Below, one piece after another: positions 3,382 to 62,969 of a stretch of DNA of 64,000 nucleotides. Every line of letters begins with the position of its first letter. Within the stretch, counting starts at the first letter, position 1. A program made the position numbers and the translations under genes. The stretch is from Chiloscyllium plagiosum (Eukaryota): NCBI RefSeq assembly GCF_004010195.1, contig NC_057757.1:6790142-6854141 (forward strand). The letters run 5' to 3'. The notes below the pieces were generated by a model. That model worked only from the letters and a program-made list of their open reading frames with translations. It had not been told where the DNA came from and made no database searches.

Positions 3382-4203
3382 TCACAGGATTATTTTGGCC
3401 ATTGCAGTGAATGGATATTTTACTCCATTCCAAAACTCCTTTCGAAATGCGTTTGTACAGCAGCTCCCGTGCGAATGTTGGCACAGGAACAGAATATCGC
3501 AAGTAATTCAGTTGTCCCAGTACTGAATAAGGCATGAAGACATCTCATAGTAGAATGAAGTTGGCTGATATAACAAAGAGCAAAATGATGGATTTCCTTC
3601 GATTCTCCACCTCTGGGTCACTGGGATTCTCTCGACTTCTCCAACCTCAGAGTCTACTGTGAGCTCTGCTGGCCAGTACAATATCCTGACTGTTAATGCA
3701 TTAAACAGTAGAATCAAGAGAAATGGAACAAATTATGTCATAATATAATGTGTTAGATTCAACAACAGCCCAAGCCATTTAAAGCGATACGCCGAATGCT
3801 ACACGGCAAAACCAGGTACTGTTTGAAAGCCAGTACTCAGTGGTGTACAGAAAAATCCAAAATATGTTCTTCATAAAGCTCAGCACCGTCACACTTCCCC
3901 AAACCATATCACAATATGTGCAATATTTAGATTTTAATTTCTGGCAACAAGTGGCAATGAAACGATCAAAGGTGAACGTGACCGTGAACCAGACAGAACA
4001 GTCTGTGATGGCGTAAGCAAGACGGCATGGCTGTCACACAAACTGATGTCCCTCAGGAAAATGAATTGCTCCCAGTAGACAATCAGAATCTGCCATAGTA
4101 TCAGATTGATGATGATGATCAGTAGCAACCAGGTAGTGAGAGTCACACATTTGGAGAGACCACACTTTCCCCCGGGACAGGATGGCTATTGTCATCACTT
4201 TAA
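3382..4203 (-). pseudogene. GPR139-like GPCR pseudogene A, exon 2 (frameshifts, stops, deletions)
   Basis: Acceptor ttcctcacag|tt at 4204/4203. Fragments in shifting frames: ILSRGK, TDCSVWFTVTFTFDRFIATCCQKLKSKYCT, KNIFWIFLYTTEYWLSNSTWFCRVA, SDPEVENRRKSIILLFVISANFILL*, SCCTNAF, NGVKYPFTAMAKIIL*. Closely matches gene E (62071-62969). Confidence 0.93.
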
Positions 4204-5511
4204 CTGTGAGGAAATTGAAGAGAGGTAAATTATCCACACTTGTGGAAATAAAACCAGTTTTTTAACGTGTTACTGAAACATAAAGATGGCCATATAAATG
4301 CAGCCATAAACTCTTTGCTAGAACCTGAAATTGATCAAAGATTCACTTTACATCCAGTGCTAGAAACGTATTATTTTACCTGTGACCATCAGTAATATAG
4401 ATATTGTTCATAATTACACCCATTAGCAAAGCATAACCATCTATATAATAAATGGGATAACATTTCAAAGAAAAAGCTTGTATTCTCTTGTGAAAAAATG
4501 TCGAGGTTCATCTATTTGAAATACTTAAAATGATTAGAGGGTTTGTTGAATAGATAGTGATAACTTACTCCCTCTTGTGGAAACTTACAGTCAAAGAGAC
4601 GTAGAGTTTTAATATGCAGTATAGTCCAGGATGACGAGAAATGCACATGAAACTGGGGTTAAACAGTTATTTTACAGAATGACACGGCAGGCTGGAGATG
4701 GCGAGTAGCTTGCTCCTGTTATAGTCATAGAGTCATAGAGATGTACAGCACGGAAACAGACCCTTTGGTCCAACCCGTCCATGTTGACCAGATATCCTAA
4801 CCCAATCTAGTCCCACCTGCCAGTACCCAACCCATATCCCTCCAAACCCTTCCTATTCATATACTCATCCAGATGCCTCTTTAATGTTGCAATTGTACCA
4901 GCCTCTTCCTAGATGTTTTAAATTTGTATCAATTTGAAAATGTGTTTGGTTATTTAGGGGTATTGTCAGTAAGCACTTAGATGCAGTAACGTAAATTGAA
5001 GATCTGCAACTATCTTCAGAGCTATGGGCCCCTGACAAAAGGTAAATCCCAGATGTCAACACTGAGAACTGATTTTATCTTTGCTAACCAAGGCTAGTAA
5101 TAGACATGGGAATAAAAGGGAAATTTAATTTAGACACAGATGAGCCATGAGTTCACAGAATGGGGCATTGTCTTTCACCAGTTGAATTATTTAGACAGAA
5201 GTTTTTTTTTATTCATTCATGAAATGTGGGAGTCTCTGATTGGCCCAGCAGTTTGTGCCCATCCATATTTAGACCGAGAGATAGCCACATTGCTATGGGA
5301 GTGGATTCACACGTAGACCAGCCGTTCCCTTCCTTGGAGGGTGGTAGTAAACCAAAAGCCTCCTTCGCCACGAATCCACAACACTTTCATTAAGTCTCTT
5401 AATTCCAGATTTTTATCAAATTCGGACTCCACCATCTGCCATGACAGGATTTGAACTGCTATCCCCAGAATATCACTTGGGTCTCTGGATTAATAATCTA
5501 GTGGGAACATT

Positions 5512-6148
5512 TGCTATGGACCAGACCAGATCCCCTCAAAATATTTGAAGAAAGTGGTCCAGACCCCAACTTTTTCTTGTTTTAAAGGTAGATGCGAAGT
5601 GCTCTGTTCCAGAATGCAATGTGTGACTGGTCATAATACTCACTTATTTAAGCACTGTTGTTAAAATACAGACAACATAAAGCAATTTAGAATAACTTAA
5701 CTATTGGAAACGTTAACTGAATAATGGATACAGTAGCTATTATTAATTAACTATTACAATATAGTAACATCCCAGAAATACATCCGTTGGCAAAAAGGCA
5801 AATTCAGACACAGTTTCTCACATGCAGTTCTCCAATCCAGGAGGAAAATAAATCAAGAGAAAATTCAGAGAGTAGCGGCTCGGAAACATTCACTGAAGCT
5901 TCCAACTCATCTGAGACCCCAAAGGCTTAAAGCTTAAAGCTAAACCTAAAAATTAAAAAGGTAACTGGAAAGCCTGGTGTCTGAGAGCTGGCCACACCCA
6001 TTCAGGCTGCTTCAATTCTTCCAACTTTATATATTAAAAAACACCAATTGTTTCCTTTCTTAGAGACAGCTCGGAACCGTTGCCATACAACCTCTCTTGA
6101 AAAGCAAACCTGGTACAAAATCACCGCTAAAAGTGACAGCATTGTCAC
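5512..6148 (-). mobile_element. Solo LTR of the Gmr1-like Ty3/gypsy family
   Basis: Similar along its length to the LTR at 36726-37332, which adjoins a polypurine tract (PPT) and pol remnants. Lies in the intron of pseudogene A. Confidence 0.75.
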
Positions 6149-6430
6149 TCACCTCTTGGCCATCGTCGCACAAAATTAATCGTTCTGGCTTCAGCAGCAT
6201 CAGTGAACGAGGGCCAATGGGGAAGGGGCTTTGAACATTTGAACTGCTGGGTTGCTCAGTTGGTGGTTGGGTGAGGCTAATGGATTAAAGCAAGGCAATG
6301 GCATGTCATTAGCGTTGTGAAACCCGTAGCTCTCATTCACACGGAGAAGGAAATGAAAGTGAGAAATGGGTCTTTGAACTCAATGTCCCCCTGGTGTAAT
6401 CTCAGGTACCCACTGCAGTGAGTCACTTAC

Positions 6431-6527
6431 CTGGCACACCGAATGCAGCCAGGATGGGGAAGTACACCATTTGGATGTCGTGCAGCGCCCAGAGAATCTT
6501 GAGCTTGATGAGAAAATCAAGCGCCAT
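6431..6527 (-). pseudogene. GPR139-like GPCR pseudogene A, exon 1
   Basis: Minus strand reads MALDFLIKLKILWALHDIQMVYFPILAAFGVP+G, then donor gtaagt. 97 nt, the same length and phase as gene E exon 1 (MPLSFLIKLRILWALYEIQKIYFPILAAVGVP). Confidence 0.93.
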
Positions 6528-7048
6528 GTCCCTTTTCCTGACGGATTGCTGCTGATGTTGAGGGCGATTCTCCGATTGACAAGGCATGAGGATTCTCCTT
6601 GCTTTTAAAACAGAGATTCCACCCGGGCGGAAATTCCGATCCTACGTTGATCGGGTTTAGTTACAGTCACTGAACAAAGAAATGGCAGAAGAAACTTTCA
6701 TAATACGATTTTCAATTCAAACAATTTAGTCACCGTTCTGATAAAGCACTGAATACAAGGACAACACCTACACCTTCAGAGACTGTGACAAGTTCAGCTG
6801 TTAGCGAGAGAAATTATCTAATTGGGCTCAAGAAATGTACGGTGAAATGATTGTTTCAAACATAATATAGAAAATTGAATCATCTGCAAACAAGCTTTTA
6901 ATTCTGATTTTTATTTAATATTTATTGCTTAGTAAGAGGCTGAAAACTTATGTTCTGGGTGTGATTATTCGTATGTTAAATGAATGTTGGAGTTCAGGCT
7001 TCTAAAACATTGAGGAAGAGCAAATAAATGTTCTTCCCTTTGTCAATA

Positions 7049-8137: not shown

Positions 8138-10033
8138 ACTAATGCTGCTTCACCTGGAAGGTGTGTTTGGGCCCTTGGATACTGAGGAGGGAGGATGTAC
8201 ACGACATATGTTACACCTTCTGTGGTTGCAGGGGAAGGTACCGTGGGGCTGGGGTGGGGTACGGTGTTGGGAGCGAAGGAGGAATGGGCCAGGGTGTCCT
8301 GGTGAGAATGGTCCCTGTGGAAGGCTGACGAGGGAGGGGAGGGGAATACGTATCTGGTGGCGGCATCTCCCTGGACGTGGTGGAAATGACGGCTAATGAT
8401 CCGCTGGATGGTGATGCTGGTGGGATGGTAGGTAAGGACATGGGGGCCCTAGCACTGTTGTGGGAAGGGAGAGAGACGGCTGAGGGCGGAAGTGTGGGAT
8501 TGGTTCAGTTTCGGAAATCTATTCAGCATGCACAAGTTGGAGCAAAGGGTCTGCTTCTGTCGGTCTGCCTCTGTTCCTCAATGATTGTTTTTGATTGGCA
8601 CAGACTCTGTTGGTTGAGGAGTTCTTCTCTGTGCTGTCAATGTCTTTGATTTGTCTTTAAGACCCAGACAGCAAATGTAATGTGTGCAATCTGATCAGTG
8701 ATATCAGAGGAATGGAGAATTCTGAGTTTGTCAGATGTTATCACATTGATAAACGACCTGGGGAATAAGGGAATGTTAATACCGTGAAAAGTACTGAGAA
8801 AGAATTCCTGTGATGGACGGAATGTGGTCAGTATTGAAGTACCGTGGTGATCCGGCTGCTCGTGAGGGGCTTTGATAGTGTGGGATCAGAAAGTGAGATC
8901 AGAGTCAGCTAATTGTTCAGCTGTACAGAGTGGGACAAGGCGCTATGGGAATGTGGATTGGTTGTTTGATATAAGGGGCAGAAAGACACGGGAATGGGAG
9001 ATTATTTATTCTGAACACAAGAACACCCTGGCAGTGGTTACACTGTGCTCTGTGAGAATGACTGCAAAGTATTCAACTGATTTCCAGAAGTATTCATATT
9101 GTTGAGTTTAAGAAATCAGAATTTGTCCCCACCTATTCCAGACACTAGTCTCGTAAAGCTTATCCGTGTCGATTGCATTTACACCCTCCCTTAAACCTGT
9201 CTGCCAATAATGTACCAATTAATCCAGATGTGGTCTCACCAATGCCCTGTACAATCTGAAACATAACCAACCCACTTCTGTATTCAGTTCTCCTTCACGT
9301 AAGATCTAAGGTGCAGGAGGAGGCCATTCAGCCCCTCGATCCTGCTCTGCCATTCAATACGATCACAGTTGATCTCCTCTCAGCCTCTCTCTACTTTCCT
9401 GCGCATTCTCCCTTACTGTATATCCACTCCTTGAATGTATTCCATATCCCAGCAGCAACACTCTCCGGGGAGTGAATTCCACAGATTCATGATCCTTCGA
9501 AGGGAGTAATTCCGCCTCGTCTGTGTTTTCAATTTGCTACACTTTGGTCTAAACCACTAACGTCTCGTTCTAGATTGTCCCACAGAGGGAAGCAACCTCA
9601 GAACAAGCGAAAACATTCTATAAGCTTTCCTGATTGCTTGCTGTGTCTGCAACATGATTGACTCGACTGTTTCGAAGTGTCCTGCTATTAAGTCTTTTAA
9701 AAATCGCTCCAAATATTTAGCTCTGATGGGTGTTAAACCAACCAGCTTCTAGTTTCCTTTCCTCCTGACTCTGTCTTTTGTGGAATAAAGAATTCCATTT
9801 GCTATGTTCTAAACAAATAGGACTTCCTGGAATCGGAGAGACAGTGGAACAGGAAAAACAACATGCCCAACTATCTCAATAGCTACTTTTTTTACTGCAT
9901 TAAAAGTCTCTAGTGCATCAGGGATCAAGAGCAGCCTGACGCTTGTCAGTTGTAAGATCTAATGATTTGCGCAGCACCACTTGCTCTGTGTCTGGGGAAA
10001 GACACGGTTACTCGATGGTTAGACCAGCAGATA

Positions 10034-12203
10034 AGCCAGCAGATAAAGGGGGTGCAGTGGTAGTTTGGTGCACTGACCTCTACACCGATGAAGCCAGACG
10101 GCAACTTGAAGACAGCTCCTCCTACCACCCCCTCGACCATGACCCCACGCCCCTATGCCAAACCATCATCTCCCAGACCACACAGAACCTCATCACCTCA
10201 GGAGATCTCCCACCCACAGCTTCCAACCTCATAGTCCGGGAACCCTGCACCACCCGATTCTACCTCCTTCCCAAGATCCACAAGCCTGACCACCCTGGCC
10301 AACCCATTATCTCAACATGCTCTTGCCCCACCAAACTCATCTCCACCTACCTTGACACTGTCTTATCCCCCCAGTCCAGGAACTCCCCACACACGTTTGA
10401 GACACCACCCACGCCCTCCACCTCCTTCAAGACTTCCGTTTCCCCGGCCCCCAATGCCTCATCTTCACCATGGATATCCAATTCCTCTACACCTCCATCC
10501 GCCATGACCAGGGCCTCCAACCCTCCGTTTCTTCCTCTCCCGACGTCCCCAACAGTACCCCTCCACCGACACTCGCATTCGTTTGGCTGAACTGGTCCTC
10601 ACCCTTAACAATTTCTCCTTCGAATCCTCCTCCCACTTCCTCCAGACCAAAGGGGTAGCCATGAGCACCCGTATGGGCCCCAGCTATGCCTGTCTCTTTG
10701 TTGGCTACGTGGAACAATCGATCTTCCGTAATTACACCGGCACCACTCTCCACCTCTTCCTCCGCTACATTGATGACTGCATTGGCGCCACCTCGTGCTC
10801 CCACGAGGAGGTTGAACAATTCATCAACTTCACCAGATGAACTAAATTCACCTGAACCATCTCTAACACCTCCCTCCCCTTCCTGGATCTCTCCATCTCC
10901 ATTAATGACAACCGACTTGACACTGACATTTTTTACATACCTACCGGCTCCTATAGCTACCTGGATTATACCTCTTCCCACCCTACCTCCTGCAAAAATG
11001 CCATCAGGAGGACCAGTTCCATCACAGAACACACCAGATGGCCTCCTTCTTTAGAGATTGCAATTTCCCTTCTCACGTGGTTGAAGATGCCCTCCAACGC
11101 ATCTCGTCTGCATCCCGCACCTCCGCCCTCAAACCCCACCCCTCCAACCGTAACAAGGACAGAACCCCTGGTGCTCACTCTCCACCATAACACCCTTTGC
11201 ATAAACCACATCATCTGCCGATATTTCTGTCACCTACAAATGGACCCCACCACCAGGGATATATTTCCCTCCCCACCCTTTTCCGCTTTCCGCAAAGACC
11301 GTTTCCTCTGTGACTACCTGGTCAGGTCCAAGGCCCCCAACAACCCACCCTCCCTCCCATCTTGGCACCTTCCCCTGCCACCACAGGAATTGCAAAACCT
11401 GCGCCCACACCTCCTCCTTCAACTCCATCCAAGGCCCCAAAGGAGCTTTCCACATCATTCAAAGTTTTATCTGCACATCCACCAATATAATTTATTATAT
11501 CTGTTGCTCCCAATGAGGTGTCCTCTACATTGAGGAGACTGGACGCCTCGTAGCAGAGTGCTTTAGGGAACATCTCCGGGACACCCGCACCAATCAACCC
11601 CACCACCCTGTTGTCCAACATTTCAACTCCCCCTCCCACTCTGCCAAGGACATGCAGGTCCTGGGCCTCCTCCATCATCGCGCCCTCACCACCCGACGCC
11701 TGGAGGAAGAACATCTCATCTTCCGCCTCAGAACACATCAACCCCCATGGCATCAATGTGGATTTCACCAGTTTCTTCAATTCCCCTCCTCCCACCTTAC
11801 CTCAATTCCAACCTTCCAGCTCAGTACCGCCCTCATGACCTGTCCTACCTGCCTATCTTCCTTCCCAACTATCCACTCCACCCTCCTCTCTGACCTATCA
11901 CCTTCATCCCCACCCCTATTCACCTATTGTACTCTTTACTACCTTCCCACACCCTCCTCTCTGACCTATCACCTCCATCCCCACCCCCATTCACCTATTG
12001 CACTCTATGCTACTTTCTCCCCACCCCCATCCCCTCTCATTTATCTCTCCACTATGCAGACACCTAGCCTCTATTCCTGATGAAGGGCTTTTGCCCAAAA
12101 TGTCAATTTTCCTGCTCCTCGGATGCTGCCTGACCTGCTGTGCTTTTCCAGCACCACTTTAATCAAGACTCTGGTTTCCAGCATCTGCAGTCCTTGTTTT
12201 TAC
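10034..12203 (+). mobile_element. Penelope-like element (RT + GIY-YIG, Neptune-type), degraded and 5'-truncated
   Basis: PADKGGAVVVW, FYLLPKIHKP, MDIQFLYTSI, GVAMSTRMGPSYACLFVGY, FLRYIDD; Cys linker CHHRNCKTCAH; GIY-YIG-like region; pLTR with a degenerate hammerhead near 12074-12110. Confidence 0.92.
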
Positions 12204-12372
12204 TCAGTGGTTAGCAATGCTGCCTCACAGTGCCAGGGACCCAATTAAATTCCAACTAAATCACCTACTTTTCACTTTAACATTATGCCTCCCCTGCTAT
12301 TGACTAAGGGATACAACTGTTTTGTATCCACTCTGCCCATGCCACTCATAATCTTATACACCTCTATCAGGT

Positions 12373-12957: not shown

Positions 12958-12959
12958 CA

Positions 12960-13685: not shown

Positions 13686-13716
<31 letters not shown>

Positions 13717-16630: not shown

Positions 16631-17154
16631 CCTCTTAGAAGATTTCTCTTACACTCAGCCAGTTCTCTCCATTCCCTCCAACAGAAAGGATGAAGCTTCT
16701 GGTGATGAGCTGATCTTTCTAGCTACAAGCCACTTTGCCAGAGAAGGGATTCAGGGCAGTGGTCATGCATTGGAAGGTTCAGGTTCAAGACCCTTTTGCA
16801 ATGGAGCAGAACATGTCCAAAAAGCATGTTTATTTCTTAAAGACAATAATTAAAATGGAGTTTGATCACCAAGTGTGGCTGGCTTGGTTTGCAGCTTAAA
16901 CACATGAAGGAACACCAAGAGCACAGCTGTAAATCTAAGTTCATTACCTCCGTCATGTGGAAACATTGGTGCTTTTGCTGACTTCAAGTCTTGTCCGTTG
17001 AGATTTTCTGCTAATCTGTTTCTATAGTTACCGTAAGTAAGACAGAAGCAGCTTAATTGCCCGTCGAGGGAGTTCCTGCTGTAATATATATCCAAAGTGG
17101 TGCTGGTGAGTGCACTGAGCTTGGCACAGCCAGACACTGTGACGTTTTGTGAGC

Positions 17155-17224
17155 ATGTATGAATATTTCGTCGACTACATCTATGCTTTTTATTACCCAC
17201 TCCTCGCAGCTGTTGGGGTTCCTG
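17155..17224 (+). CDS. GPR139-like class A GPCR, gene B, exon 1
   Basis: ATG at 17155 gives MYEYFVDYIYAFYYPLLAAVGVP+G (70 nt), then donor gtaagt at 17225. Shares the (Y)YPxLAAxGxP motif and phase with the other four loci. Confidence 0.88.
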
Positions 17225-18765: not shown

Positions 18766-19279
18766 CAGATCTTTTTGTTCGAGATTATGTGACTTTTGTC
18801 TGTGAAAGGCAACCCGTGAGATTATTAGGTAACTCTCAATTCATCCAAGCTGAATGTACTTCGAAGCAAATGGAGGAACCGTCCGATTTTGTGTCATAAC
18901 TTTTCTCCTCATTTAAACAAGGACCCTCCAACTTACTGCTGGGATCTTCTACTTCTCATTCTATAACCCTGTGCAAAAATGCCTGCTGAGGGGAATGAGT
19001 GAGCAACAAGAAACCCATTTTCTCACCCAGTTTTCACAACGCTAGATTTATGACTTCTTGTGGCCATCCATAGGTTTTAAAAATAGTCATGCATAACCCC
19101 TCCAGGAAAGTTCTGCTGAGATAGAGTTGGCTTTATCTGATTGGCTGGTTTGAATTGAATGTGCAAAATCAGGAATGAAAGAGAAGTTGAAGTAGGAAAA
19201 GATCCACTAAAAGTCAAAGATGCTATAGATGATGCTGTACTTGCCATTTTGATAACAATCTTTTCTTTGCTCCTTGCAG

Positions 19280-20169
19280 TGAACTTGGTGACGATCTGGA
19301 TTCTATGTCAGGGAAGGTGCGGTCTCTCCAAATGCATCACTCTGTACTTGGTGGCCATGGCAGTGGCAGATCTGTTGGTGGCGATTACTGAAGTGATACT
19401 GAATCGCTCTGTTTCCTTTTATTTCCCAAACAATATCCTGAAAACGACCCCAGGGTGCAGCACTCTCATTGTCCTGATCTGTGCGGTGAGGGATACTTCT
19501 GTCTGGTTAACAGTGGCTTTCACTCTCGATCGATTCATAGCAATTTGTTGCCAGAAACTGAAAGTAAGATATTGTGTCCCGAGGACGGCAGCTGTGGTAA
19601 TTGTGGTTGTGACTCCTCTGTTTTTTCTGAAGAACATCCCCTGGTTTTTCAGTTTTGAACCTGTCTACGTCATTGACGATATACCGTGGCAGTGCCAGTC
19701 CAAACCCATATTTTACACATCGCCTGCCTGGGTGGCATACGATTGGCTCCATCGGATCTTAAACCCATTCTTACCTTTTTTCTTTATTCTGCTATTCAAC
19801 GCTCTGACAGTCAGACACATTTTACAGGCCAACAGAGTACGGAAAGGATTGTTGTCCAAGCAAGGAGGGGATCAGGTGGATCCGGAAACAGAGAACCGAA
19901 GGAAGTCCATGATTTTACTCTTTGCCATATCGGGCAGCTTCATCGCTCTGTGGATGCCCTATGTCATTAATTTCCTTCATTATCGAATCGCAAAGACGTA
20001 TTATTACACTGATGCAAATGCCCCTGGCTACATTCTACAGCAGATGGGTTACCTGTTCCAATTGTCCAGCTGCTGTGTAAACACTTGCATTTATGTTGTA
20101 ACTCAGGCCAAATTCAGAGAGGAACTGAAGAGAATGTTCAGAACTCCGTGTCAGCTCTGTGTTAAGTAA
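19280..20169 (+). CDS. GPR139-like class A GPCR, gene B, exon 2 (spliced CDS 960 nt, 319 aa, intact)
   Basis: Acceptor ttgctccttgcag|tg with matching phase 1. 7TM motifs: GVPVN (TM1), YLVAMAVADL (TM2), SVWLTVAFTLDRFIAICC (TM3), KNIPW, ECL2 Cys, ENRRKS, LWMPY (TM6), SCCVNTCIY (TM7), FREELK (helix 8). Confidence 0.95.
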
Positions 20170-22980: not shown

Positions 22981-24366
22981 TGAGAATTCTACAGTGTGAA
23001 ATGTCCCTGTAGAAATATGGGAAAATGCAAGGGAATGCATTTTGGCAGGAAAGTAGAGTTGTGGTTCAAATCAGATCAGCCACGATCTCACTGAAAGGTA
23101 GAGTAGGCTTGTTCCTTGTGTGAATGTTGGGATAAATAGACCTCTGATCCCATTCATTACCTAATAACAGCTCGACATTCAACCGGAATGACTCTCCATT
23201 CCTTCAGGAAACTTCAAACCAATGGAATCGCATAGAGTCCAACGTGGCCATGACATTGTTGAACTTTACTGATGAATAACATCCACTAAAAGATGGATAG
23301 GTAATTAAACACAGGCTGGAATTTGCTTTTGGAAATGGACAGGAGGGATATGGAGAATGAACGTTATGAAAGATTGTTGGCAGAAAATGTACAAGTTGAG
23401 AGTGCTTCATTTCTTGCTTGTTTGACAGACTGAGCAATCTGCAAGAGGAAGGAGTTATTTTGGCTGAACCATGCAGTTCTTCTTCACCTGTGCACAGTGA
23501 ACTCAAGTAGACGGTTCGAGATGCTGAAGGAGCAGCCATTTACAGTACTACACGGGTCGCAACTGGATAACCGTTTGGAATTTGCTTTTTCTTGTCAGTT
23601 CCCAAATTTTAAACAAGAAAAACTTGAAAGGAATTACATTTGCCATCTCTATGTAATCATGAATTCACCTTAAACTTTTACAATACTGAATAGCATCTTT
23701 CCGATTCCAACTTTCAGAGATGGCCCTCAGTGAGCTCCTCCACCATTCCCTCCATTTCACTGGTGCCTTGCTACCCTCATTCCCCAATCAAATGACTTGA
23801 ACTCAGACATGCGGATCTTTAACAGCGATAAAGCACAGTTAGAAAGTTTATTTCATTTCTGTCTCTGAGTACAGCCTTCATTCAGTGCTACACAGTCAGG
23901 GCTTCAAGGCTCCAACATGAGACATAACCTGTTTCTGGTGAGTGTCTTCATTCAGTGAGAAGGAGCAGTGTGGGCCAGTGGGACCTCATCATTGTATTTG
24001 GGATTTTCTGCTCAGTCTGCAGCATTCCAGCCCATGGTGGCAGTGCAATGGGAAAGTCTCCTCTTGTGGATTACAATAGTCCTTTCAACACACAGTTCCA
24101 GGCCAGTTACAGAACTCCGAGAATTCGGAGTTAGACCCTGATAATTCATTGATTAAAGGAGGAGGAACAAGAAAACAGTTTCAAGCTGATGAGGTCATCA
24201 ACGTCTCTGTGCCTCACTCTGCAGCACGTTTTATTTTCTGTTTCATAAAACCACAAACTGCAGCTCAACCCAGTCCTCCTGCCCCACCATACAAACTGGA
24301 GATTTGGACACCTTTCTCAATAGTACAGGCGTACATTCCAGAGACTACAGGCAGGTCAGGTTAACA

Positions 24367-25555
24367 TTGATGACTGCATTGGCGCCACTCGTGCTCCCGC
24401 GAGGAGGTTGAGCAATTCATCAACTTCACCAACACATTCCACCCTGACCTTAAATTTACCTGGACCATCTCTGATACCTCCCTCCCCTTCCTGGACCTCT
24501 CCATCTCCATTAATGACGACCGAGTGGACACTGACATTTTTTACAAACCCACCGACTCCCACAGCTACCTGGATTACACCTCTTCCCACCCTACCTCCTG
24601 CAAAAATGCCACCCCATATTCCCAATTCCTCCGCCTTCACTGTATCTGCTCCCAGGAGGACCAGTTCCACACAGAAAACACCAGATGGCCTCCTTCTTTA
24701 GAGACCACAATTTCCCTTCCCACGTGGTTAAAGATGCCCTCCAACGCATCCCATCCACATCCCCCACCTCCACATTCAGACCCAACCCCTCCAACCGCAA
24801 CAAGGACAGAACACCCCTGGTGCTCACCTTCCACCCTACCAACCTTCGCACAAACCAAATCATCCGCCGACATTTCCACCACCTCCAAACAGACCCCACC
24901 ACCAGGGATATATTTCCCTCCCCACCCCTCTCAGCCTTCCGCAAAGAGCGTTCCCTCCGTGACTACCTGGTCAGGTCCACGCCCCCCCTACGACCCACCC
25001 TCCCATCCTGGAACTTTCCCCTGCTATCGCAGGAACTGTAAAACCTGTGCCCACACCTCCATCCAAGGCCCTAAAGGAGCCTTCCACATCCATCAAAGTT
25101 TTACCTGCAAATCCACTAATATCATTTATTGTATCCGTTGCTCCCGATGCGGCCTCCTCTACATTGGGGAAATTGGGCGCCGCCTAGCAGAGCGCTTTAG
25201 GGAACATCTCCGAGACACCCGCACCAACCAACCAAACCGCCCNNNNNNNNNNNNNNNNNNNNNNNNNNNNNNNNNNNNNNNNNNNNNNNNNNNNNNNNNN
25301 NNNNNNNNNNNNNNNNNNNNNNNNNNNNNNNNNNNNNNNNNNNNNNNNNNNNNNNNNNNNNNNNNNNNCACCCCCACCCTCCCCTAGTTTATCTCTCCAC
25401 GTTTCAGGCTCTCTGCCTTTATTCCTGATGAAGGGCTTTTGCCCGAAACGTCGATTTTGCTGAAGCTCCTCGGATGCTGCCTGAACTGCTGTGCTCTTCC
25501 AGCACCATTGATCCAGAATCTGGTTTCCAGCATCTGCAGTCATTGTTTTTACCTC
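24367..25555 (+). mobile_element. Young 5'-truncated Penelope-like element with a 13-bp TSD
   Basis: TSD ggtcaggttaaca at 24354-24366 and 25556-25568; GIY-YIG NIIYCIRCSRCGLLYIGEIGRRLAERFREHL; contains the gap at 25243-25368. Confidence 0.93.
25421..25456 (+). ncRNA. Minimal type I hammerhead ribozyme motif in a Penelope-like pLTR
   Basis: attc-CUGAUGA-a-GGGC uuuu GCCC-GAAA-CGUC-gauu: conserved core boxes, 4-bp stem II, palindromic ACGU in place of stem III, GUC cleavage triplet. Confidence 0.75.
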
Positions 25556-28232: not shown

Positions 28233-28359
28233 AGATTGTCCTCTCTCCATGGATGCTACCTGACCCGCTGTGATTTCCCGAATTTTTTATTTTCAGTGCA
28301 GATTCCAGCATCTTCAGTAATTATCCCCAGAAAGCATCTATCTCTCTCAGTCTTAAATA

Positions 28360-30997: not shown

Positions 30998-31067
30998 ATG
31001 CAAGGTATACCTAAAGGTCGGCTGTTTGCAATTTATTATCCCATCCTTGCAGCTATTGGGTTGCCAG
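30998..31067 (+). pseudogene. GPR139-like GPCR pseudogene C, exon 1
   Basis: MQGIPKGRLFAIYYPILAAIGLP+G (70 nt), donor gtactg; close paralog of gene D exon 1. Confidence 0.92.
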
Positions 31068-33887: not shown

Positions 33888-35137
33888 CTAACTTGGCAGT
33901 GATTGAGATTCTATCCAGAGGAAAGTGCAGTCTCACCCGATGCATCACTTACTACTTTGTATCTATGTTGACAGCACGGTGGCACAGTGGTTAGCACTGT
34001 TGCCTCACAGCGCCAGAGACCCGGGTTTAATTCCCGCCTCACGCAACTCTTTGTGTGGAGTTTGCACATTCTCTGTGTGGGGTTTGCACATTGTCTGCGT
34101 GGGTTTCCTCCGGGTGCTCTGGTTTTCTCCCCCAATCCAAAAATGTGCAGGTTAGGTGAATTGGCCATGCTAATTTGTCCGTAGTGTTAGGTGAAGGGGT
34201 AAATGTAGGGGAATGGGTCTGGGTGAGTTGCGCTTCGGCGGATCATTGTGGACTTGTTGGGCCGAAGGGCCTGTTTCCATGCTGTAAGCAATCTAATCTA
34301 ATCGTGGTGGTGACAGACCTGCCAGTTAGTATTACCGCTATAATATTGAACTGCATTGTCAGCATTTGCTTCCTGTTCAGTGTCCTGTATGTCACCCTAG
34401 TCTGTAGTGATAACTGTGTCCTAATGGCCAGAAGCCATGATTGTTCTGTCTGGGCGACTGTGGTATTTTCTATTGATCAGTTTGTAGCCATTTCTTGCCC
34501 AAAATTGAAGACAAGATATTGCACAGAGAAGATAGTAGCTGTGGTTACAGGGGCAGTTTGTGGTATGAGCTGTATCAAAAATACATTCTGGTATTTCATG
34601 TTTCAACCATTATATACAATCGGTAATGTACCATGGCATCGCAAAATTAATTCTATATTTTATACCTCACCTGCATGGACTGCATTCGATTGGATTGATC
34701 GCACTTCACCCCCTTGTCTCCCATTTGTCTTGATCTTACTGCTCATTGCTGTGCCTGTCAGACAAATTCTAAAGGTCGTTCAAACTCACAAAAGCCTCCG
34801 TTTCAGCAAACAGGCAGAAAATCTGAATGATATGGAGGTGAGGAATCGGAGAAAGTCCGTCGTCCTGCTGTTCTGTATCTCGGGTAGTTTCATCCTATTA
34901 TGGCTGCTGTTTATATTATCAATTCTCTACATCCGAATTGCACATGTGCTATATTTCTCAGGTTACACGTAGAATGAGTTCACTAACATTCTGGAAGAAA
35001 GCGGGTATATGCTTCAGATGTTCAGTTCCTGCATAAACCCATTTATTCATGTAGGGACCCAGAGTAAATTCAGAAATGAGTTAAGGAGTGGCATAAAAAT
35101 TTCTGTAAATTTCATTGTGAAGTCTTTAAAACTTTGA
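33888..35137 (+). pseudogene. GPR139-like GPCR pseudogene C, exon 2
   Basis: Colinear with gene D exon 2. Lesions: acceptor cag>caa, SINE inserted in TM2, DRF>DQF, ECL2 Cys>Arg, TAT>TAG at 34970-34972. The frame continues to the ancestral TGA at 35135-35137. Confidence 0.95.
33968..34303 (+). mobile_element. HE1-like SINE inserted in the coding exon of pseudogene C
   Basis: Full head, core and (ctaat)n tail between codons YFVSM and VVVTDL. Confidence 0.93.
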
Positions 35138-39805: not shown

Positions 39806-39809
39806 GTCA

Positions 39810-41534: not shown

Positions 41535-41574
41535 TGTCTCGCCCACTTCGTGTGGAGTAGTGAATCTTACCGAA

Positions 41575-41644
41575 ATGCATAGTGCACCGAAAGGTCTGCT
41601 CTTTGCCATTTATTATCCCATCCTTGCAGCTATCGGGGTGCCAG
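41575..41644 (+). CDS. GPR139-like class A GPCR, gene D, exon 1
   Basis: MHSAPKGLLFAIYYPILAAIGVP+G (70 nt); donor gtactg at 41645. Confidence 0.92.
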
Positions 41645-45788: not shown

Positions 45789-46699
45789 CTAACGTGGCAG
45801 TGATTGTGATCCTATCAAGAGGAAGATGCGGTCTCACCAGATGTATCACTTACTACCTCGTATTCATGGCAGTAACAGACCTGCTGGTCATTATTACAGC
45901 TGTAATATTGAACCGTATTGTTGGCATTTATTTCCCATTCAGCGTCATGTACATCACCCCAGTCTGTAATGTTAATTTTGTTCTAATGGCTGGAAGCAGA
46001 GATTGTTCTGTCTGGGCAACTGTCGCATTCACTATTGATAGGTTTGTAGCCATTTCTTGCCTGAAATTGAAGACAAGATATTGCACAGAGAAAATAGCAG
46101 CTGTAGTTATAGGGGCAGTTTGTGGAATGAGCTGTATCAAAAATACATTCTGGTATTTCATACATGAACCATTATATACAATTGGTAATATACCATGGCA
46201 TTGCAAAATTAAGTCTATATTTTATACCTCACCTGCATGGGCTGCATTTGATTGGATCTATCGCATTTCAACACCTTGTCTCCCATTTGTTTTGCTTTTA
46301 TTGCTCAATGTTGTGACTGTCAGACAAATTCTAAAGGCCGTGCGAACTCGCAAAAGACTCCTTGTTGGTAAACAGGCGGAAAATCAGAATGACATGGAGG
46401 TCAGGAACCGGAGAAAGTCCATCATCCTGCTCTTCTGTATCTCAGGCAGTTTCCTCCTGTTATGGATGCTCTATGTTTTAACATTTCTCTACGTCCGAAT
46501 TGCAAAAGTGACTTATTTCTCGGGTTTCAATTATAAAGAGTCCAATTTCAATCTGGAAGAAAGTGGCTATATGCTTCAGATTTTAAGTTCCTGCATAAAC
46601 CCATTTATTTATGCAGGCACCCAGAGTAAGTTCAGAAATGAGTTAAGAAGTGGCATTAAATTTTCCATCAACTTTGTTGCGAAGATTTTTAACTTTTGA
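45789..46699 (+). CDS. GPR139-like class A GPCR, gene D, exon 2 (spliced CDS 981 nt, 326 aa, intact)
   Basis: Acceptor tattgcag|ct, phase 1. GVPAN, RGRCGLTRC, YLVFMAVTDL, SVWATVAFTIDRFVAISC, PWHC, RNRRKS, SSCINPFIY (NPxxY), FRNELR. AATAAA motifs follow the stop at 46705 and 46713. Confidence 0.95.
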
Positions 46700-46888
46700 T
46701 GAAAAATAAACTAATAAAGATGAGTCATATAATCTTGTACCTGGCACAATAAAGAGACTGTGTTGTCTAAAGCGGCCTGATTTACATATGTACAACTTAA
46801 GAAGGTTTGTACTTACATACACAATCTCATTCAGGGTTTAACTCTAAAGACACACAGATACACACACAATTTAATCTTCACCTCCCCC

Positions 46889-47300
46889 GCTGAGTGACAA
46901 TAGAACCTCAATCACAGGGATACAATCTCACTCTCCCCTCCTTCAGCTGGGTGACAATACAACCTCAATCACAGGGATACAATCTCACTTTCCTCTCCCC
47001 CGCTGGGTGACAATATAAACTCAATCACAGGGATACAATCTCACTCCCCCCTCCTTCAGCTGGGTGACAATACAACCTCAATCACAGGGATACAATCTCA
47101 CTTTCCCCTCCCTCAGCTGGGTGACAATATAACCTCAATCACAGGGATACAATCTCATTTTCCTCTCCCCCGCTGAGTGACAATATAACCACAATCACAG
47201 GGATACAATCTCACTTTCCTCTCCCCTGCTGGGTGACAAGACAACCTCAATCACAGGGATACAATCTCACTTTCCCCTTCCTCAGGTGGGTGACAATGAC
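46889..47300. repeat. 56-57-bp minisatellite, ~7 copies
   Basis: Units gctgggtgacaatacaacctcaatcacagggatacaatctcactttcc.. start at 46889, 46946, 47002, 47059, 47116, 47172, 47228 and 47285. Confidence 0.95.
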
Positions 47301-47324
47301 AATCATCATGTTTCCACCTGGGCC

Positions 47325-51555: not shown

Positions 51556-51639
51556 CCAGCTCCTTTGTGAATGATAACCCATTGCTCCACTGTAGACTTA
51601 CCCATAAGCAGCCCTTCCCAGTCTACTATGGGCAGATCC

Positions 51640-55229: not shown

Positions 55230-58200
55230 TGTGCCTCACAATTAGGTGGTCAGTACTAGGGTATTGTAGCTCTATCAGAGAGTCGGTACTGAGGGACTGC
55301 CTCATTGTCAGAAGGTCCGTTCTGATGGAGGGCCTCATTATCAGAGGGTCAAGATTTGGGGAGTGCCTTATTGTCAGAGATTCATTCCGAAGTGCGTGTC
55401 ACTTTGTCAGAGAATTCATTCTGAGGTTGTACCTCAATGTCATGCCATCAGGATCGAAGGAGAGCTACATGATTAGAAGGTGAGGATGGAGGTATTATAG
55501 CTCTGTCAGAGGGCCAGATATTTGGGAATGTGTTATTGCTGAAGGGTCAAATTTGAAACACTGCCTTACAATGAGGGCATCAGAATTGAGGGAGTGCCAA
55601 CCATTCAAAAGGTCAGTCCTAAAGTAGTGCTGCACTGTCAGAGGGTCAGTTCTGTGGGAGGGCCTTGTATCAGATGGTCAGTACTGAGGCAGTGCCTCAT
55701 TGTCACAGGGTCCATTCTGAGACAGTGCCTAATTGTAAGGGGTCAGAGTGCCTCATTGTAAGGGTCCTTTTCCACTGTAAACACTGAGGCAAAATACGTG
55801 TTTAGTATCTCCTTCATCTCCTACAGTTCCACACGTAGGCTGCTTTGCTGATCTTTAAGTGGCTCTATTCTCTCCTTAGCTACCTCTTCGAACTTAATGC
55901 ATTTATGGAATCTCTTTGGATTCTCTTTGCTAACCACTGTGCCACCGTGCCACCCACGGTGTAGACATAACCTTCCCTGCACAAAACCATGCTGCCTATC
56001 ATTGATAAGCTCATTTTCTTCCAAACGGATATATATCCTATCCCTTAGTATCTTCTCCAGTAGCTTCCCTACAACTGACGTCAGTCTCACAGGTTTGTAA
56101 TTACTTGGATTATCCCTGCTACCCTTCTTAAACAAGGGGACATCATTAGCAACTCTCAAGTCCTCTGGGATCTCCCCCTTGTTCAAGGATGCTGCAGAGA
56201 TATCTGTTAAAGCTCCAATTATCTCCTCTCTCACTTCCCTCAGTAACCTTGGACAGATCCCATCCGGACACGGGGACCTATCGACCTTAATGCCTTTTCG
56301 AATACCCAACACTTTCTTACTCCTTATGCCAACTTGACGAGAATAATTAAAGATCTATCCCTAACCTCAACATTCACCGTGTCCCTCTCTTCGGTGAATA
56401 CCGATGCAAAGTCCACATTAAGAATCTCACCCATTTTCCCTGATTCCACACATATCGTTGCTCCTTTGTCCTTGAGTGGGCCAATGCTTTCCCTGGTTAC
56501 CCTCTTGCTCCTTATATATGGATAAGAGGCTTTGGGGTTTTCCTTAACCGTGCTCACTAAGGATCCCTTTTAGCCCTCTTAATTCCTCATTTCAATTTCA
56601 ACTTTACATCCCTTCAATGAGGCACTCCATAATGACTGACCCTCTAATAATGAGATCTTCTGTCAGGACTGACTCTCTGATAATAGGGCACTGCCCCAAC
56701 ACTGAGCCTCTAGGTATCAGCTACAGGGTCAGAATTGATCCTCTGACAATGCTTCAATAGCTCAGTACTACTTCTTTAATTGTGTAGCTTTCTTTCACTT
56801 CTGACCCCATTACAGTAAGGTACTGTCTCACAACAGATTCTCTGAAAATGAGGCACTCCCTCAGTATTGAGCGTCTGATCGTGAGGGCTCCCACAGTAGT
56901 GGCTCTCTCACTGTGCTCCACGATCAGTACTGACCCTCTAAGTGTCAACCCACCCTCAGGTCTGATCACCATGCAATGAGGCATTGCCTCAGTATTGACC
57001 CTCTGACAGTGCGGCACCCTCACTACTGACTCTCAAAAAGTACAGCACTCTCACAGTGCTGACTCTCTGACAATGCAGCACTCCCTCAGTACTCAGTCTC
57101 TGAAATGCAGCATCCTCTCAATGCTGCGACTAGCCACTGTCAGAGGAACAGAACTGTAGGAATGCATTATTTTCAGAGGGTAAGTACTACAGAACTGCAG
57201 CATTGTTGAAGGATCAGTTCTGAGGCAGTGCCACGTTGTCACAGGTCAGTTCTGAGGCAGTGCCACGTTGTCACAGCGTCAGTTCTGAGGCAGTGCCTGA
57301 TTGTCACAGGATCAGTTCTGAGGCCATGCCTCTTTGTCAGAGTGTCAGGTCTGAGGGAGTGCGTGAGTCAGAGATGGTCAATACTGAGGCAGTGTCTCAT
57401 TCTAAGAGGGTCAGAATTGAAAGGGTGCTAAATAATTGTAAGGTCAGTACTGAGGTATTGTAGCTATATCAGAGGGTCGGTGCCTTATTCTCCGAGAGTC
57501 ACATTGGAGAGGGTGATAAACAAGTGTAAGTTCAGTACGAACGTATTGCAGCTATATCAGAGGGTCAGTACTGATGGAGTGCCTCATTATCAAAGGGTCC
57601 AAACTGTGAGAGTGCATTATTGTCAGAGGGTGAATACTGAGGCAGTGCATCATTATGCAGCTGTCAGAATTCAGAGTTCTACTTGATTACAGGGTCAGTG
57701 CTGAGGGAGGGCTATCTTGTTATTGGGTCAGCTCGTTGGGATTGCCTCCCACTGCTGCAACGCCAGCGTAATGGTGCTCTGACAGTGCTTCAATGCCTCA
57801 ATGCTCACCCTCTGACAATGAGAAACTCCTTCAGTTATGACCCTCTGATACAACTGCAATGCTGCACCTTAATACTGACTCTCCAGTGTGTGGCACTGCC
57901 TCAATCATGACATTATTACAGAGGCACTGTCACAGTATTGACCATCAGACAATGAGGCTGACCTTATAATTATTTAGCATCCTCTCAATTCGGACCCTCT
58001 GAGAATGAGACACTGCCTCAGTATTGAACATCTCTGACTCATGTGCTCCCTCAGAATTAACACTGATAAAGAGGCACTGCCTCAGAACTGACCCTTAAAC
58101 AATGAAGCACTTTCCCTCCGAAAATAATACACTCCGACAGTTCTGTTTCTCTGACAGTGGCACACTGTCTGGTGTCAGCACTGAGAGGATGCTGCATTTT

Positions 58201-58900
58201 CAGAGACTGAGTACTGAGGGGGTGCTGTACTGCCACAGTATTGACCATCTGACAGTGAGGCAATCCCAATGAGCTGACCCAATAACAAGATATCCCTCCC
58301 TTACCACTGACATTGTAATCAAGTAGAACTCTGAATTCTGACAGCTGCATAATGATGCACTGCCTCAGTATTCACCCTCTGACAATAATGTACTCCCACA
58401 GTTCTGACCCTCTGATAACGAACCACTCCGTCAGTACTGACCCTCTGATATAGCTCAGCAGTGAGCTTACAATTATTTAGCACCCTCTCAATTCTGACCC
58501 TCTTTGAATGAGCCACTACCTCAGCATTTACCATCTCTGAACGCTGCCTTCCCTCAGAACTGACACTCTGACAAATAGGCATTGAATCAGTGACAGATCG
58601 TCAGAATTATGGGAATGCATTCTTATGAGCGGCTTAATACTGACACAGTGTCTTATGATAAAAGGTTAGAACTGAGGGAGTGCCACATGATTTCCGGGTG
58701 AGTACTGAGATATTGTAGAACGGTGAGAGTCTCAGAACTGAAGGACTGGCCCATTGTCAGAGGGTCAGTACTGAGAAGAGTTATTATTGTCAGACGGTCA
58801 ACACTGAGGCAATGTTACATTCTAATAGGGTCAAAACTGAGAGAATGTCACACGATTAAAAGGTCAGTACTGAGAAGAGTGCATCATTGTCAGACACTGT
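55230..58900. repeat. Degenerate ~33-34-bp satellite (gtcagagggtcagtactgagggagtgcctcatt) in blocks of alternating orientation, interrupted by CR1 at ~55760-56610
   Basis: Unit visible on + at about 55230-55760, 57135-57755 and 58590-58900, and on - at about 56610-57130 and 57770-58585. Confidence 0.88.
55760..56610 (-). mobile_element. CR1 LINE ORF2 fragment
   Basis: KENPKASYPYIRSKR; SPCPDGICPRLLRE...ANDVPLFKKGSRDNPSNYKPVRLTSVVGKLLEKILRD...QHGF. Confidence 0.92.
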
Positions 58901-59735
58901 ATTCCCATCAAACATTTCCAGGGAAGGGACAGCATAGGGTTAGGCACAGAATAAAGCTCCCTCCACACTGTCCCCATCATTCCCTCCCTGGTCAGGTAAA
59001 GCATTGAGTTTGATATAGAATAAAGCTCCCTCGCCGCTATCACAATCAAAAACTTTAACGGGAGTTATAATCTGATGAGAGATGCTGATTTAAACTCATT
59101 CCTTATTCTCCCCATCTTACAAATGCACACAGACACAGACAGACACACGCACTCAGACATACACATACACTCAGACACATGCACAGACCCTACGCACACA
59201 CACAGAAACACACACACACATCAAATTTGGATGAACTGCACAAATTCAACACCAAGTTCTCTCTGCTCTGTTCTGATTCCCTGTTAGATTGCTGGCTCTG
59301 AACATCTACATAGACAGTCGTCCTAATCCCATGTGCCATGTCATGTTGCCAAACTCTGATTCCAATCTGGAGTGTGATACAGGAGCAATTAAGGATGCAG
59401 GTAGGGATGGCAAATTTCTTTCTCTTTCGGTCATCAGTGAAGCTGGTGAGATTTTCTGACAATTGGCAATGATTTTGTGATTATTAGACTCATTATTCCA
59501 GATTTCTTTTGACTTATCAGTAATTCCACTGTTCCAGCTTGCACCCTTGGATTGAAAGCTGTTGACTTCACTTGTTTGTTCACTGACTGCAGGTAAACAC
59601 AAGCACCGAGGGACCCGATTTTCTGACCGGTTGAGTTATCACTCCTATAACAACGGCAAATCTTCTCCATGTCTCAAAGAGAATGTCTCTGTTCACCAGG
59701 AATAAACATTACATCATCTCCTCTTCTCCAAAGCA

Positions 59736-59832
59736 ATGCCGCTTAGTTTTCTGATCAAGCTCCGGATTCTGTGGGCGCTTTATGAGATACAAAAGATTTA
59801 CTTTCCCATCTTGGCTGCAGTCGGTGTGCCAG
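59736..59832 (+). CDS. GPR139-like class A GPCR, gene E, exon 1
   Basis: MPLSFLIKLRILWALYEIQKIYFPILAAVGVP+G (97 nt); donor gtatgt at 59833; homologous to pseudogene A exon 1. Confidence 0.85.
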
Positions 59833-59984
59833 GTATGTTTTTACCCAGTGCTGGGGCTTCATTTGGGATTGACAGATGTGACAGTTTCGGTTGTGTACGT
59901 AAGTATTTCGATCATTCTGCTACTATAACACACCAGTGATCACACTAGGAAAACATTTCAATCTATCTCCCTTACTATATCACT

Positions 59985-60001
59985 TTCTTTCTTTCTTTCT
60001 T

Positions 60002-60074
<73 letters not shown>
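59985..60074. repeat. (CTTT)n/(CTAT)n microsatellite
   Basis: Directly visible. Confidence 0.95.
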
Positions 60075-60075
<1 letters not shown>

Positions 60076-61689: not shown

Positions 61690-61935
61690 CGAATAGAATG
61701 AAACCCCGACAGTTTGAAAGCAGGCCATTTGGCCCATTGAGTACATGCCAACCCTCTCAAGAGCATGCCGCCCAGACACACCTTACCATATTGCAACACC
61801 ACCCAAAGCAAACCCATGCAGACACAGGGAGAATGTGCAAACTCCACACAGACAGTTGCCCAAGGCTGGAATCAAAGCCGGGTCCCTGGCGCTGTAAGGC
61901 AGCAGTGCTGACCACTGAGCCACCATGCTGCCCTG
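61690..61935 (-). mobile_element. HE1-like SINE
   Basis: gacacagggagaatgtgcaaactccacacagacag...gcagcagtgctgaccactgagccaccatgctgccc. Confidence 0.85.
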
Positions 61936-62070
61936 AGAGTGTTATATTCTATGATAGAATAAAAATGTCCCTATTATGTAGCTTACACTGGTATTAGACT
62001 GGAAACTTTTAAACATCTGCCGTTTGTCTATGCCTGCGGAATAATTTCTGCACTTCTCTCTTCTTTGCAG

Positions 62071-62969
62071 TTAATGTAGTAACCATCTTGATCCTTACTC
62101 GGGGAAATTGTGGTCTGTCTAAATGTGTAACCCATTACCTGGTGGCCATGGCAACCGCAGATCTATTGGTCATTATCATTGATCTGATATTGCGTCAGAT
62201 ACCTATCGTTTATTGGGAAGGATTCAGCATTTTCCGAATAATTCCCTTGTGCAATATCCATGCCGTTCTGCTTTATGCAGCCACAGACAGTTCTGTCTGG
62301 TTCACTGTAACTTTCACCTTTGATCGATTTGTGGCCATTTCTTGCCAGAAGCTGAAATCTAAATATTGCACTGAAAAGACAGCAACTGTTGTCATAGGAA
62401 CAGTGACAGGGTTGTGCTTTGTGAAAAACATTTTCTGGTATTTTCTGTACACACGTGAATATTAGCTTTCAAACAGTTCTTGGTTTTGCCGTGTGGCTCT
62501 CAGAGTATCCCATTCACTGGTCTGGGCCATCGTTGAATTAATCCATTACATACTAACACCATTCGTTCCATTTATTCTGATTCTTCTCCTCAATGCAATG
62601 ACGGTCAGGCACATATTAATGGCCAGCAGAGCACGCAAGAGACTTCAGTATCGGAGCAACATTGAGAGTCAAAGTGACCCAGAGATGGGCAGTCGAAGGA
62701 AATCCATGGTTCTGCTGTTTGTGATATCGGGGAACTTTGTTCTGCTGTGGGTGGTGTTCATGGTTTGTTCTATACTGAGACGATTAGATTACTTGGAATA
62801 TTCTGTTTCTGTACCAGCGTTCGTTCGAGAAATTGGCATCATGCTCCAGCTTTTGAGCTGCTGCACGAATACTTTTATTTACACTGTAACCCAGAGGAGG
62901 TTTAGAGAGGAGTTGAGAAATGGAGTGAATTATTCCCTTTCATGGATGGTCAAACTATGTCGATGCTGA
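62071..62969 (+). pseudogene. GPR139-like GPCR gene E, exon 2, with one in-frame TAG (young pseudogene, null allele or base error)
   Basis: Acceptor ttctttgcag|tt. ORFs 62088-62465 and 62493-62969 share one frame, separated by TAG at 62463-62465. All 7TM motifs are present (RGNCGLSKC, FDRFVAISC, SRRKS, SCCTNTFIY); 331 codons when spliced. Confidence 0.88.

Follow-up and report, generated by a model that had tools for sequence, protein, structure and literature searches.

The 64,000-nucleotide stretch of the Chiloscyllium plagiosum genome analysed here (contig NC_057757.1, positions 6,790,142 to 6,854,141; hereafter the window) carries five loci of a family of class A (rhodopsin-like) G protein-coupled receptors (GPCRs), which comprises well over a thousand gene copies in this genome, pseudogenes included. 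This expanded GPCR repertoire from an unexpected branch is real. The boldest reading, at a probability of about 0.4, is that cartilaginous fishes possess, beyond the few dozen olfactory receptors credited to them, an overlooked chemoreceptor family with hundreds of working genes, which would have arisen independently from the neuropeptide-receptor clade behind the Srw-type chemoreceptors of nematodes and molluscs. Extracellular loop 2 (ECL2) and transmembrane helices 6 and 7 (TM6, TM7) would form a hypervariable surface with which the youngest branch reads peptides that vary, such as cues from prey, from microbes or to individual identity. That the genes are a repertoire of chemosensory cells, and so a further vertebrate chemoreceptor family, is proposed by analogy and held at a little under even odds.

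When the long seven-transmembrane frames of the window were compared by tblastn with the window itself, exactly five such loci were found. A scan for first exons (G, then V, L, I, A or F, then P, one base and GT) gave seven matches, five of which are the receptor first exons. These end in G(V/L)P followed by G/GT, and exon 2 of all five loci begins two bases ahead of the Asn1x50 codon; the intron is therefore of phase 1. The exons are as follows, in window coordinates.

Locus A exon 1: 6431..6527, minus strand; 32 codons, ending AFGVP + G/GT.
Locus A exon 2: 3382..4203, minus strand; decayed, E/A subtype, 3' end approximate.
Locus B exon 1: 17155..17224, plus strand; 23 codons, ending AVGVP + G/GT.
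Locus B exon 2: 19280..20169, plus strand; open, of an old lineage common to sharks and rays.
Locus C exon 1: 30998..31067, plus strand; 23 codons, ending AIGLP + G/GT.
Locus C exon 2: 33888..35137, plus strand; pseudogene, tandem duplicate of D.
Locus D exon 1: 41575..41644, plus strand; 23 codons, ending AIGVP + G/GT.
Locus D exon 2: 45789..46699, plus strand; open.
Locus E exon 1: 59736..59832, plus strand; 32 codons, ending AVGVP + G/GT.
Locus E exon 2: 62071..62969, plus strand; same clade as the positively selected copies on contig C8.

An earlier reading of this DNA, made from the letters alone (the sequence-only reading), had described five loci with one two-exon layout and a phase-1 intron after G(V/L)P, and the tblastn search, the exon-1 scan and the acceptor positions bear it out. 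Its tally of two intact genes, one with a single stop and two decayed ones also holds: spliced B (319 amino acids) and D (326 amino acids) are open, E has 331 codons with a single TAG at codon 164 (62463-62465) in ECL2, A has many frameshifts and four stops in exon 2 when aligned to E, and C has lost its acceptor (AG>AA) and contains a TAG at 34970-34972. Exon 2 of C also carries a 339-bp insertion resembling a short interspersed element (about 33963-34301), and about ten further copies of this repeat lie in the window. The stop codon of E may mark a recent loss, belong to one allele or result from a sequencing error; its position coincides with a positively selected, hypervariable ECL2 site of E's relatives. 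The proposed subtypes A/E, B and C/D agree with the identities (A and E 75%; C and D 84% in exon 2; the B, D and E proteins 49-53% pairwise) and with the intron and upstream DNA that C and D have in common. The intracellular motifs are as claimed, with the variants QGRCG in B and SRRKS in E, and the N-termini are indeed short, exon 1 coding for 23-32 amino acids, mainly TM1. Introns measure 2.1-4.1 kb. Exon 2 of B is 97% identical to a Chiloscyllium plagiosum database protein, and recent open copies of B, 96-98% identical, occur elsewhere in the genome (C48:6900940, C98114:2742); one of these lies about 90 kb downstream on B's own contig. D is one of at least eight open paralogues with 82-100% identity, all on one contig.

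The assignment to class A rests on several observations. B, D and both halves of E match PF00001 above cutoff, and the AlphaFold model of P0001 (mean predicted local distance difference test score, pLDDT, 86) has seven helices, a helix 8 and an ECL2 beta-hairpin at 149-164. Among 100 family proteins R3x50, P5x50, N7x49 and Y7x53 are present in all and W6x48 in 91; the class A motifs take the forms DRF and NTxxY, and P6x50 is mostly lost. The family proteins have no Pfam match to 7tm_4, V1R, TAS2R or 7tm_3, in keeping with the claim that they are distinct from odorant receptors (ORs), TAARs, V1Rs and V2Rs, and the same holds for T2Rs. PF10324 (Srw) likewise gives no match for the window proteins and a precomputed match in one of 120 relatives. 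Against the family profile, invertebrate proteins with Srw matches reach 110-120 bits, more than human GPR139 does. By Atlas features, one of the nearest clusters is a mollusc 'Chemosensory receptor A' cluster, which is a lead only; the mollusc genes of this name have a chemosensory role.

The size of the family has been estimated in several ways. A 33-base degenerate motif from TM3 (exon 2) has 1,218 exact matches genome-wide, an E/A-type motif 558, and a motif of exon 1 plus donor 2,076 (at most one mismatch), the reversed control giving none in each case. A genome search with B returned 8,099 first-look candidates; the best 133 were scored, all at 310 bits or more, and 129 of them have no stop. 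The merged rows of three locus searches (L001 and L002 excluded) amount to 294 distinct loci, and in 267 exon 2 is full-length and stop-free. Of the latter, 223 lie on contigs C2-C49, with 93 on C44 alone, and 44 on small contigs, where some copies may be haplotype duplicates. In a sample of 80 motif loci, drawn non-randomly from the first 100 motif matches and with 76 on contig C8, exon 2 was open in 26, broken in 40 and running into assembly gaps in 14. At least 293 distinct loci with an open exon 2 (267 merged and 26 sampled) have been seen directly, and a figure of about 500 is an extrapolation from them. The supposition of birth and death with a high pseudogene load thus stands, since 40 of the 66 assessable sampled loci (about 60%) are broken, and the genome-wide count is over a thousand copies rather than few.

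The C8 copies (L009-L028) have common 40-bp and 65-bp satellite arrays upstream of exon 2, in the intron, which may promote their duplication; assembly gaps often adjoin them, and L011 also contains a set of 26-bp arrays. No exon 1 was found within 4.6 kb of exon 2 in any of 20 loci. A listed same-strand exon 1 lies within 70 kb for 11 of 33 C8 exon-2 loci, against 1-4 of 33 in controls, and the motif positions suggest introns of 11-67 kb for these 11. The first 21.6 Mb of C8 contain 88 exon-1 motifs against 33 exon-2 motifs, the two motifs differing in stringency, and the excess could be due to collapsed exon-2 copies, motif bias, or orphan or alternative first exons. The satellite arrays, the broken share of the sample, the exon-1 excess and the possible haplotype duplicates among the 44 copies on small contigs would all suit an account in which most copies are by-products of satellite- or repeat-driven duplication around a few functional genes. 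We hold this to be very improbable: neutrality predicts a ratio of nonsynonymous to synonymous rates (omega) near 1 throughout, whereas in the codon models described below 60% of codons are near 0.18 and values above 1 are confined to extracellular sites; 223 open loci are on contigs C2-C49; and old subfamilies are common to sharks and rays.

The family extends across the cartilaginous fishes. In a search with exon 2 of B, 2,135 candidates were scored and 1,396 clusters pass 1e-10. Of the 120 relatives listed, 119 are named proteins of sharks, skates or rays, most of which bear the label 'probable GPR139'; Heterodontus francisci contributes 44 of the listed proteins, on 11 different contigs, and Heptranchias perlo 27. 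Old subfamilies such as the B lineage are common to sharks and rays, and a Callorhinchus milii protein falls inside the family, which is therefore older than the split of sharks and chimaeras. In the P0165 cluster a Chiloscyllium punctatum member groups with a 'RING-type domain-containing' protein, possibly a fusion or a gene-model artefact.

Nearer relatives than GPR139 came to light outside the cartilaginous fishes when 1.8 billion representatives were searched with the family profile and the matches were looked up further: one gene that is also present in sturgeon and is represented by 20 amphibian clusters, each species having a single row, with 66-74% conservation, a coelacanth/teleost gene (shark orthologue L001), an anchovy gene (shark L002) and amphioxus genes. 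The first of these, the P0216 group, comprises frogs, salamanders, a caecilian and sturgeon, includes Xenopus and axolotl, carries the label 'probable GPR139' and has no amniote or teleost row among its 25 matches. In a maximum-likelihood tree of 43 rows (LG+G4), whose outgroup consisted of five similarity-selected invertebrate proteins and which contained no further vertebrate class A receptors, the 24 chondrichthyan rows group with the amphibian/sturgeon gene P0216/P0307 (100/99). Next out are the L001 group (coelacanth P0225), the L002 group (anchovy P0253) and amphioxus (95/89), and the GPR139+GPR142 branch lies outside the family and its low-copy relatives. Support for the chondrichthyan family as a single clade is moderate (87/56). 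By this tree the sister of the shark expansion is the conserved amphibian/sturgeon gene. A restriction to sharks, rays and chimaeras applies to the expansion and not to the lineage itself. The genome also contains two single-copy GPR139-related orphans, L001 and L002, whose lineages seem to be absent from the set of solved and named human receptors.

The sequence-only reading had taken the five genes for GPR139-like receptors. A relationship to GPR139 and GPR142 is upheld: with a profile of 103 family sequences human GPR139 is the top solved structure (73 bits; the next reaches 52), and the phase-1 acceptor two bases before Asn1x50 recurs, on the acceptor side, in L007, L008 and L001. Chance similarity has been rejected as an explanation of the family. 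B as a single query does not separate GPR139 (35.7 bits) from GPR21/52 (GPR21, 37.6 bits), and Foldseek separates GPR139 poorly from other peptide receptors. What fails is descent by duplication of GPR139. A GPR139-type motif occurs at only two loci genome-wide, L007, which scores 525 bits against the human chain and is a true GPR139, and L008, GPR142-like by our own reading. B, D and E are 18-24% identical to the shark's own GPR139/GPR142 (21-24% to the L007 GPR139), and a joint clade of the family with GPR139/142 is rejected by the approximately unbiased test (AU p=0.0066). An 'expanded GPR139' has been discarded on this test and on the separate single GPR139 and GPR142 loci; the phylogeny of B, D and E puts them on a branch apart, with the amphibian/sturgeon gene as its sister.

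The ancestry bears on the supposition that the receptors detect variable peptides which the animal itself uses in its reproduction or physiology (in gonad, sperm, oviducal gland or neuroendocrine cells) and co-evolve with a peptide family. According to a review (PMC12208981) the invertebrate relatives of the clade serve as receptors for neuropeptides (MIP/sex peptide, proctolin, FMRFamide), the single-copy sister gene is conserved at 66-74% over the 20 amphibian clusters, as would be expected with an endogenous ligand, and some catshark V2Rs are described as testis-enriched in the part of PMC11979771 at hand. Hundreds of open and about 60% broken copies far exceed the usual needs of endogenous signalling, and such a role appears improbable.

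An amino-acid ligand, as assumed in the sequence-only reading, is weakened by the binding site. The accessible part of PMC5430874 gives F3x33, H5x43, W6x48, R6x51 and N7x38 (N271) as the Trp/Phe-binding residues of GPR139, with R6x51 binding the ligand in models. Counted from conserved anchors, so that generic residue numbers are approximate, the 100 family proteins have F/Y3x33 in 69, H5x43 in 19, W6x48 in 91, R6x51 in 1, an Asn at the N271 position in 35 and E3x32 in none; the aromatic floor (3x33, 6x48) persists in part, H5x43 is found in B, E and all 26 C8 copies, and most members have R3x36/D3x37 in place of GPR139's polar anchor. Cys3x25 is present in 87 and an ECL2 cysteine in 86 of the 100 proteins, and neither occurs in GPR139/142. 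A TM3-ECL2 cysteine pair is a feature of peptide receptors, and peptide-like ligands fit the family better than amino acids. It is highly improbable that the genes are amino-acid sensors retaining the L-Trp/L-Phe recognition of GPR139/142: the frequent F/Y3x33, W6x48 and Asn at the N271 position, the H5x43 of B, E and the C8 copies and the lead of GPR139 among solved structures speak for it, and against it are the loss of R6x51, the Trp/Phe-binding arginine, in all but one of the proteins, the absence of E3x32, the low identity to the shark's own GPR139, the location of the selected sites outside the deep pocket, and the needlessness of hundreds of receptors for twenty amino acids.

Selection has been analysed in 26 open C8 exon-2 copies of the E/A branch, which group with locus E in the tree (100/100). 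In IQ-TREE codon models omega is 1.0-1.06 in the extracellular half, delimited in advance from the structural model, and 0.37-0.38 in the remainder. Model M2a improves on M1a by 514 (twice the log-likelihood difference, 2dlnL), with 60% of codons at omega 0.18 and 7% at omega 7.05. Seventeen sites exceed a posterior of 0.95, and every one of them is extracellular, compared with 118 of the 291 columns (P=1e-7): two are in ECL1 (one of them site 67 by alignment), nine in ECL2 and the TM5 entry, and six at the tops of TM6/TM7 and in ECL3. They alternate along the ECL2 hairpin and share one face of the helices, a periodicity which suggests that the selected residues face the pocket. The signal recurs in M8/M8a (491), with gap-adjacent columns dropped (492), in disjoint halves (307 with omega 13.9 for the youngest 13 copies, 141 for the other 13) and in three segments each given a separate tree (60, 228 and 161), and three null simulations gave at most 1.4. 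The cytoplasmic face is under purifying selection while copies duplicate and many die; in the E/A branch the ECL2 hairpin, ECL1 and the TM6/TM7 tops diversify and deep TM3/TM5 positions stay constant.

The strength of this selection benefits another explanation, namely defence: receptors on leukocytes, mast-like cells, barrier epithelia or nociceptors would detect microbial, parasite or venom peptides, like mammalian FPRs and MRGPRs, and the changing vestibule would reflect an arms race, possibly an escape from a pathogen protein that binds it. A restriction of very high omega to surface-exposed positions (7, rising to 14 among the youngest 13 copies) accords with it, as do the recent burst of copies (558 E/A-type motifs, sampled copies about 90% identical in DNA) and the niche left open by the absence from cartilaginous fishes of MAS1 and receptors akin to it, stated in the part of PMC8455134 available. 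Opposed to it are the absence of 'GPR139' and 'coupled receptor 139' from four supplementary files of the bamboo shark immune single-cell atlas (PMC11372145), where other gene identifiers are possible, the lack of enrichment of kB-like motifs in the window (12 against 9.9 expected), and the retention of old lineages such as B across sharks and rays, which an arms race alone would not predict. On balance a role in defence is somewhat unlikely.

The chemosensory reading that we prefer would run as follows. One gene of the GPR139-related (FMRFamide/MIP-receptor-like) clade, conserved at low copy in amphibians and sturgeon, would have been expanded in cartilaginous fishes into a giant class A GPCR repertoire. 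The external ligand, of middle size and probably peptide-like, would combine an anchor common to all with a part that varies, and would come in different versions, one read by each receptor; signalling would run through a shared G protein. The most likely setting would be olfactory microvillous neurons, taste cells or solitary chemosensory cells. Sharks have very few known olfactory receptors according to the available text of two studies (PMC11979771, PMC10116579), and this tiny repertoire favours a chemosensory role. A large, clustered gene set rich in pseudogenes, the diversified ligand-facing sites of the E/A branch and a fold with the ECL2 hairpin and the TM3-ECL2 cysteine pair also accord with this reading.

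Transcription has been looked for at locus B in four sequencing runs, of which X1 and X10 are RNA by guess only and bear no tissue labels. From its 30th base a 211-nt contig of X1 matches 19279-19460, beginning at the predicted acceptor of B and with no match before it. Over exon 2 of B the depth of X1 and X10 is low, and in the unique intron bins 18776-19177 it is zero; X8 has a trace in two exon-2 bins, X9 has no matches, exon 1 has zero depth in all four runs, and no exon1-exon2 junction of B is among the 15 junctions displayed of 65. Together these are a weak sign of transcription of B. A search of sequencing runs listed no RNA run containing B, which speaks neither for nor against its expression. 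The upstream regions of the five loci align loosely, and a loose conserved block (TTCA-TGAC ... TAAA ... AT-rich), a possible core promoter, precedes the start codons of three of them:

Locus A conserved upstream block: about 6600-6700, minus strand.
Locus B conserved upstream block: about 16980-17080, plus strand.
Locus E conserved upstream block: about 59560-59670, plus strand.

Several points weigh against the chemosensory reading or the evidence on which it draws. The sensory setting is proposed by analogy. O/E-type motifs are not enriched in the window, and the available part of PMC11979771 names no GPCR among the 50 most abundant and specific genes of a catshark 'brain & olfactory epithelium' library, although sparse receptors would not be expected in such a list. 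The pseudogene share comes from the non-random sample described above, and the selected C8 copies are known as open exons 2, with a candidate same-strand exon 1 for 11 of 33. The site models were run with our own code, relative branch lengths being kept fixed, and their signal can be inflated by gene conversion among paralogues. Loop sites with omega of 7-14 are met more typically in host-pathogen conflict than in odorant receptors. Finally, D and its seven paralogues give 2dlnL 0 and omega 0.39/0.41 outside/inside, which rules out family-wide positive selection. The expectation of a site-wise dN/dS signal is thus met by strong diversifying selection in the E/A branch and not in the D subfamily, and the claimed divergence of the extracellular loops holds between subtypes and not within that subfamily, where extracellular change is not in excess. 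Three modes thus coexist in the family: lineages that are old and conserved (B), local duplicates that are quiet (C/D) and a branch that is exploding and diversifying (A/E).

Between the receptor genes lie decayed retroelement-like frames (9940-12080, 24324-25387, 27503-28255 and 31643-32410) with reverse transcriptase and GIY-YIG-type sequences, which we take to be Penelope-like. Tandem arrays in the window have units of 44 bp (1-608), 57 bp (46877-47302, beginning directly past the D stop codon) and 33 bp (55275-58448). None of the window's 24 tandem-repeat rows is a 26-bp upstream array.

Literature searches found no description of the family, which subscription papers or supplements could mention, and the family proteins are already public under the automatic label 'probable GPR139'. 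Family terms have zero occurrences in a bamboo shark genome paper (PMC7677710). The text at hand of a GPR139 review (PMC12208981) does not mention cartilaginous fishes, and the family is not mentioned in the accessible supplements of PMC13188829 and PMC11372145 or in 12 of the 24 files of PMC8455134. The last of these, the whale shark genome paper, describes in its available part a relative paucity of GPCRs in cartilaginous fishes. An OR-sized family hidden under such a label contradicts the picture of sharks as poor in GPCRs and ORs, whatever the tissue. If olfactory, the family would raise anew how sharks manage to smell with so few receptors, and would add a new origin of vertebrate chemoreceptors; if it serves immunity or barriers, it would be among the largest germline-encoded sets of GPCR sensors known. 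The single-copy amphibian sister gene (Xenopus, axolotl) offers a tractable route to the ancestral ligand.

Compared with known systems, the family is closest among solved structures to GPR139/GPR142 (PDB 7vug, 9m42), the best profile match and narrowly first in Foldseek, with which it shares the phase-1 acceptor and the short N-terminus; these receptors differ in being single-copy here, in lacking the TM3-ECL2 cysteines and in keeping R6x51. Low-copy GPR139-related orphans of bony vertebrates adjoin the shark family in the tree and may be the 'GPR210A/B' orphans placed near GPR139/GPR142 in coelacanth, gar and fishes (PMC6504862); the word 'shark' does not occur in the accessible text of that study, which describes no expansion. 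Srw-type expansions (nematode Srw, mollusc chemosensory receptor A) and the FMRFamide/MIP receptors belong to the same wider clade by Atlas features, but the shark expansion is independent and took place in a vertebrate. With ORs, TAARs, V1R-ORAs, V2R-OlfCs and T2Rs the family has in common its clusters, birth and death, many pseudogenes, short N-terminus and OR-like size, and it differs from them in its separate ancestry and its two coding exons. Mammalian FPRs and MRGPRs are likewise clustered, fast-evolving, peptide-sensing GPCRs, found in sensory neurons and immune cells, but they stem from an unrelated class A branch and number one to two orders of magnitude fewer genes.

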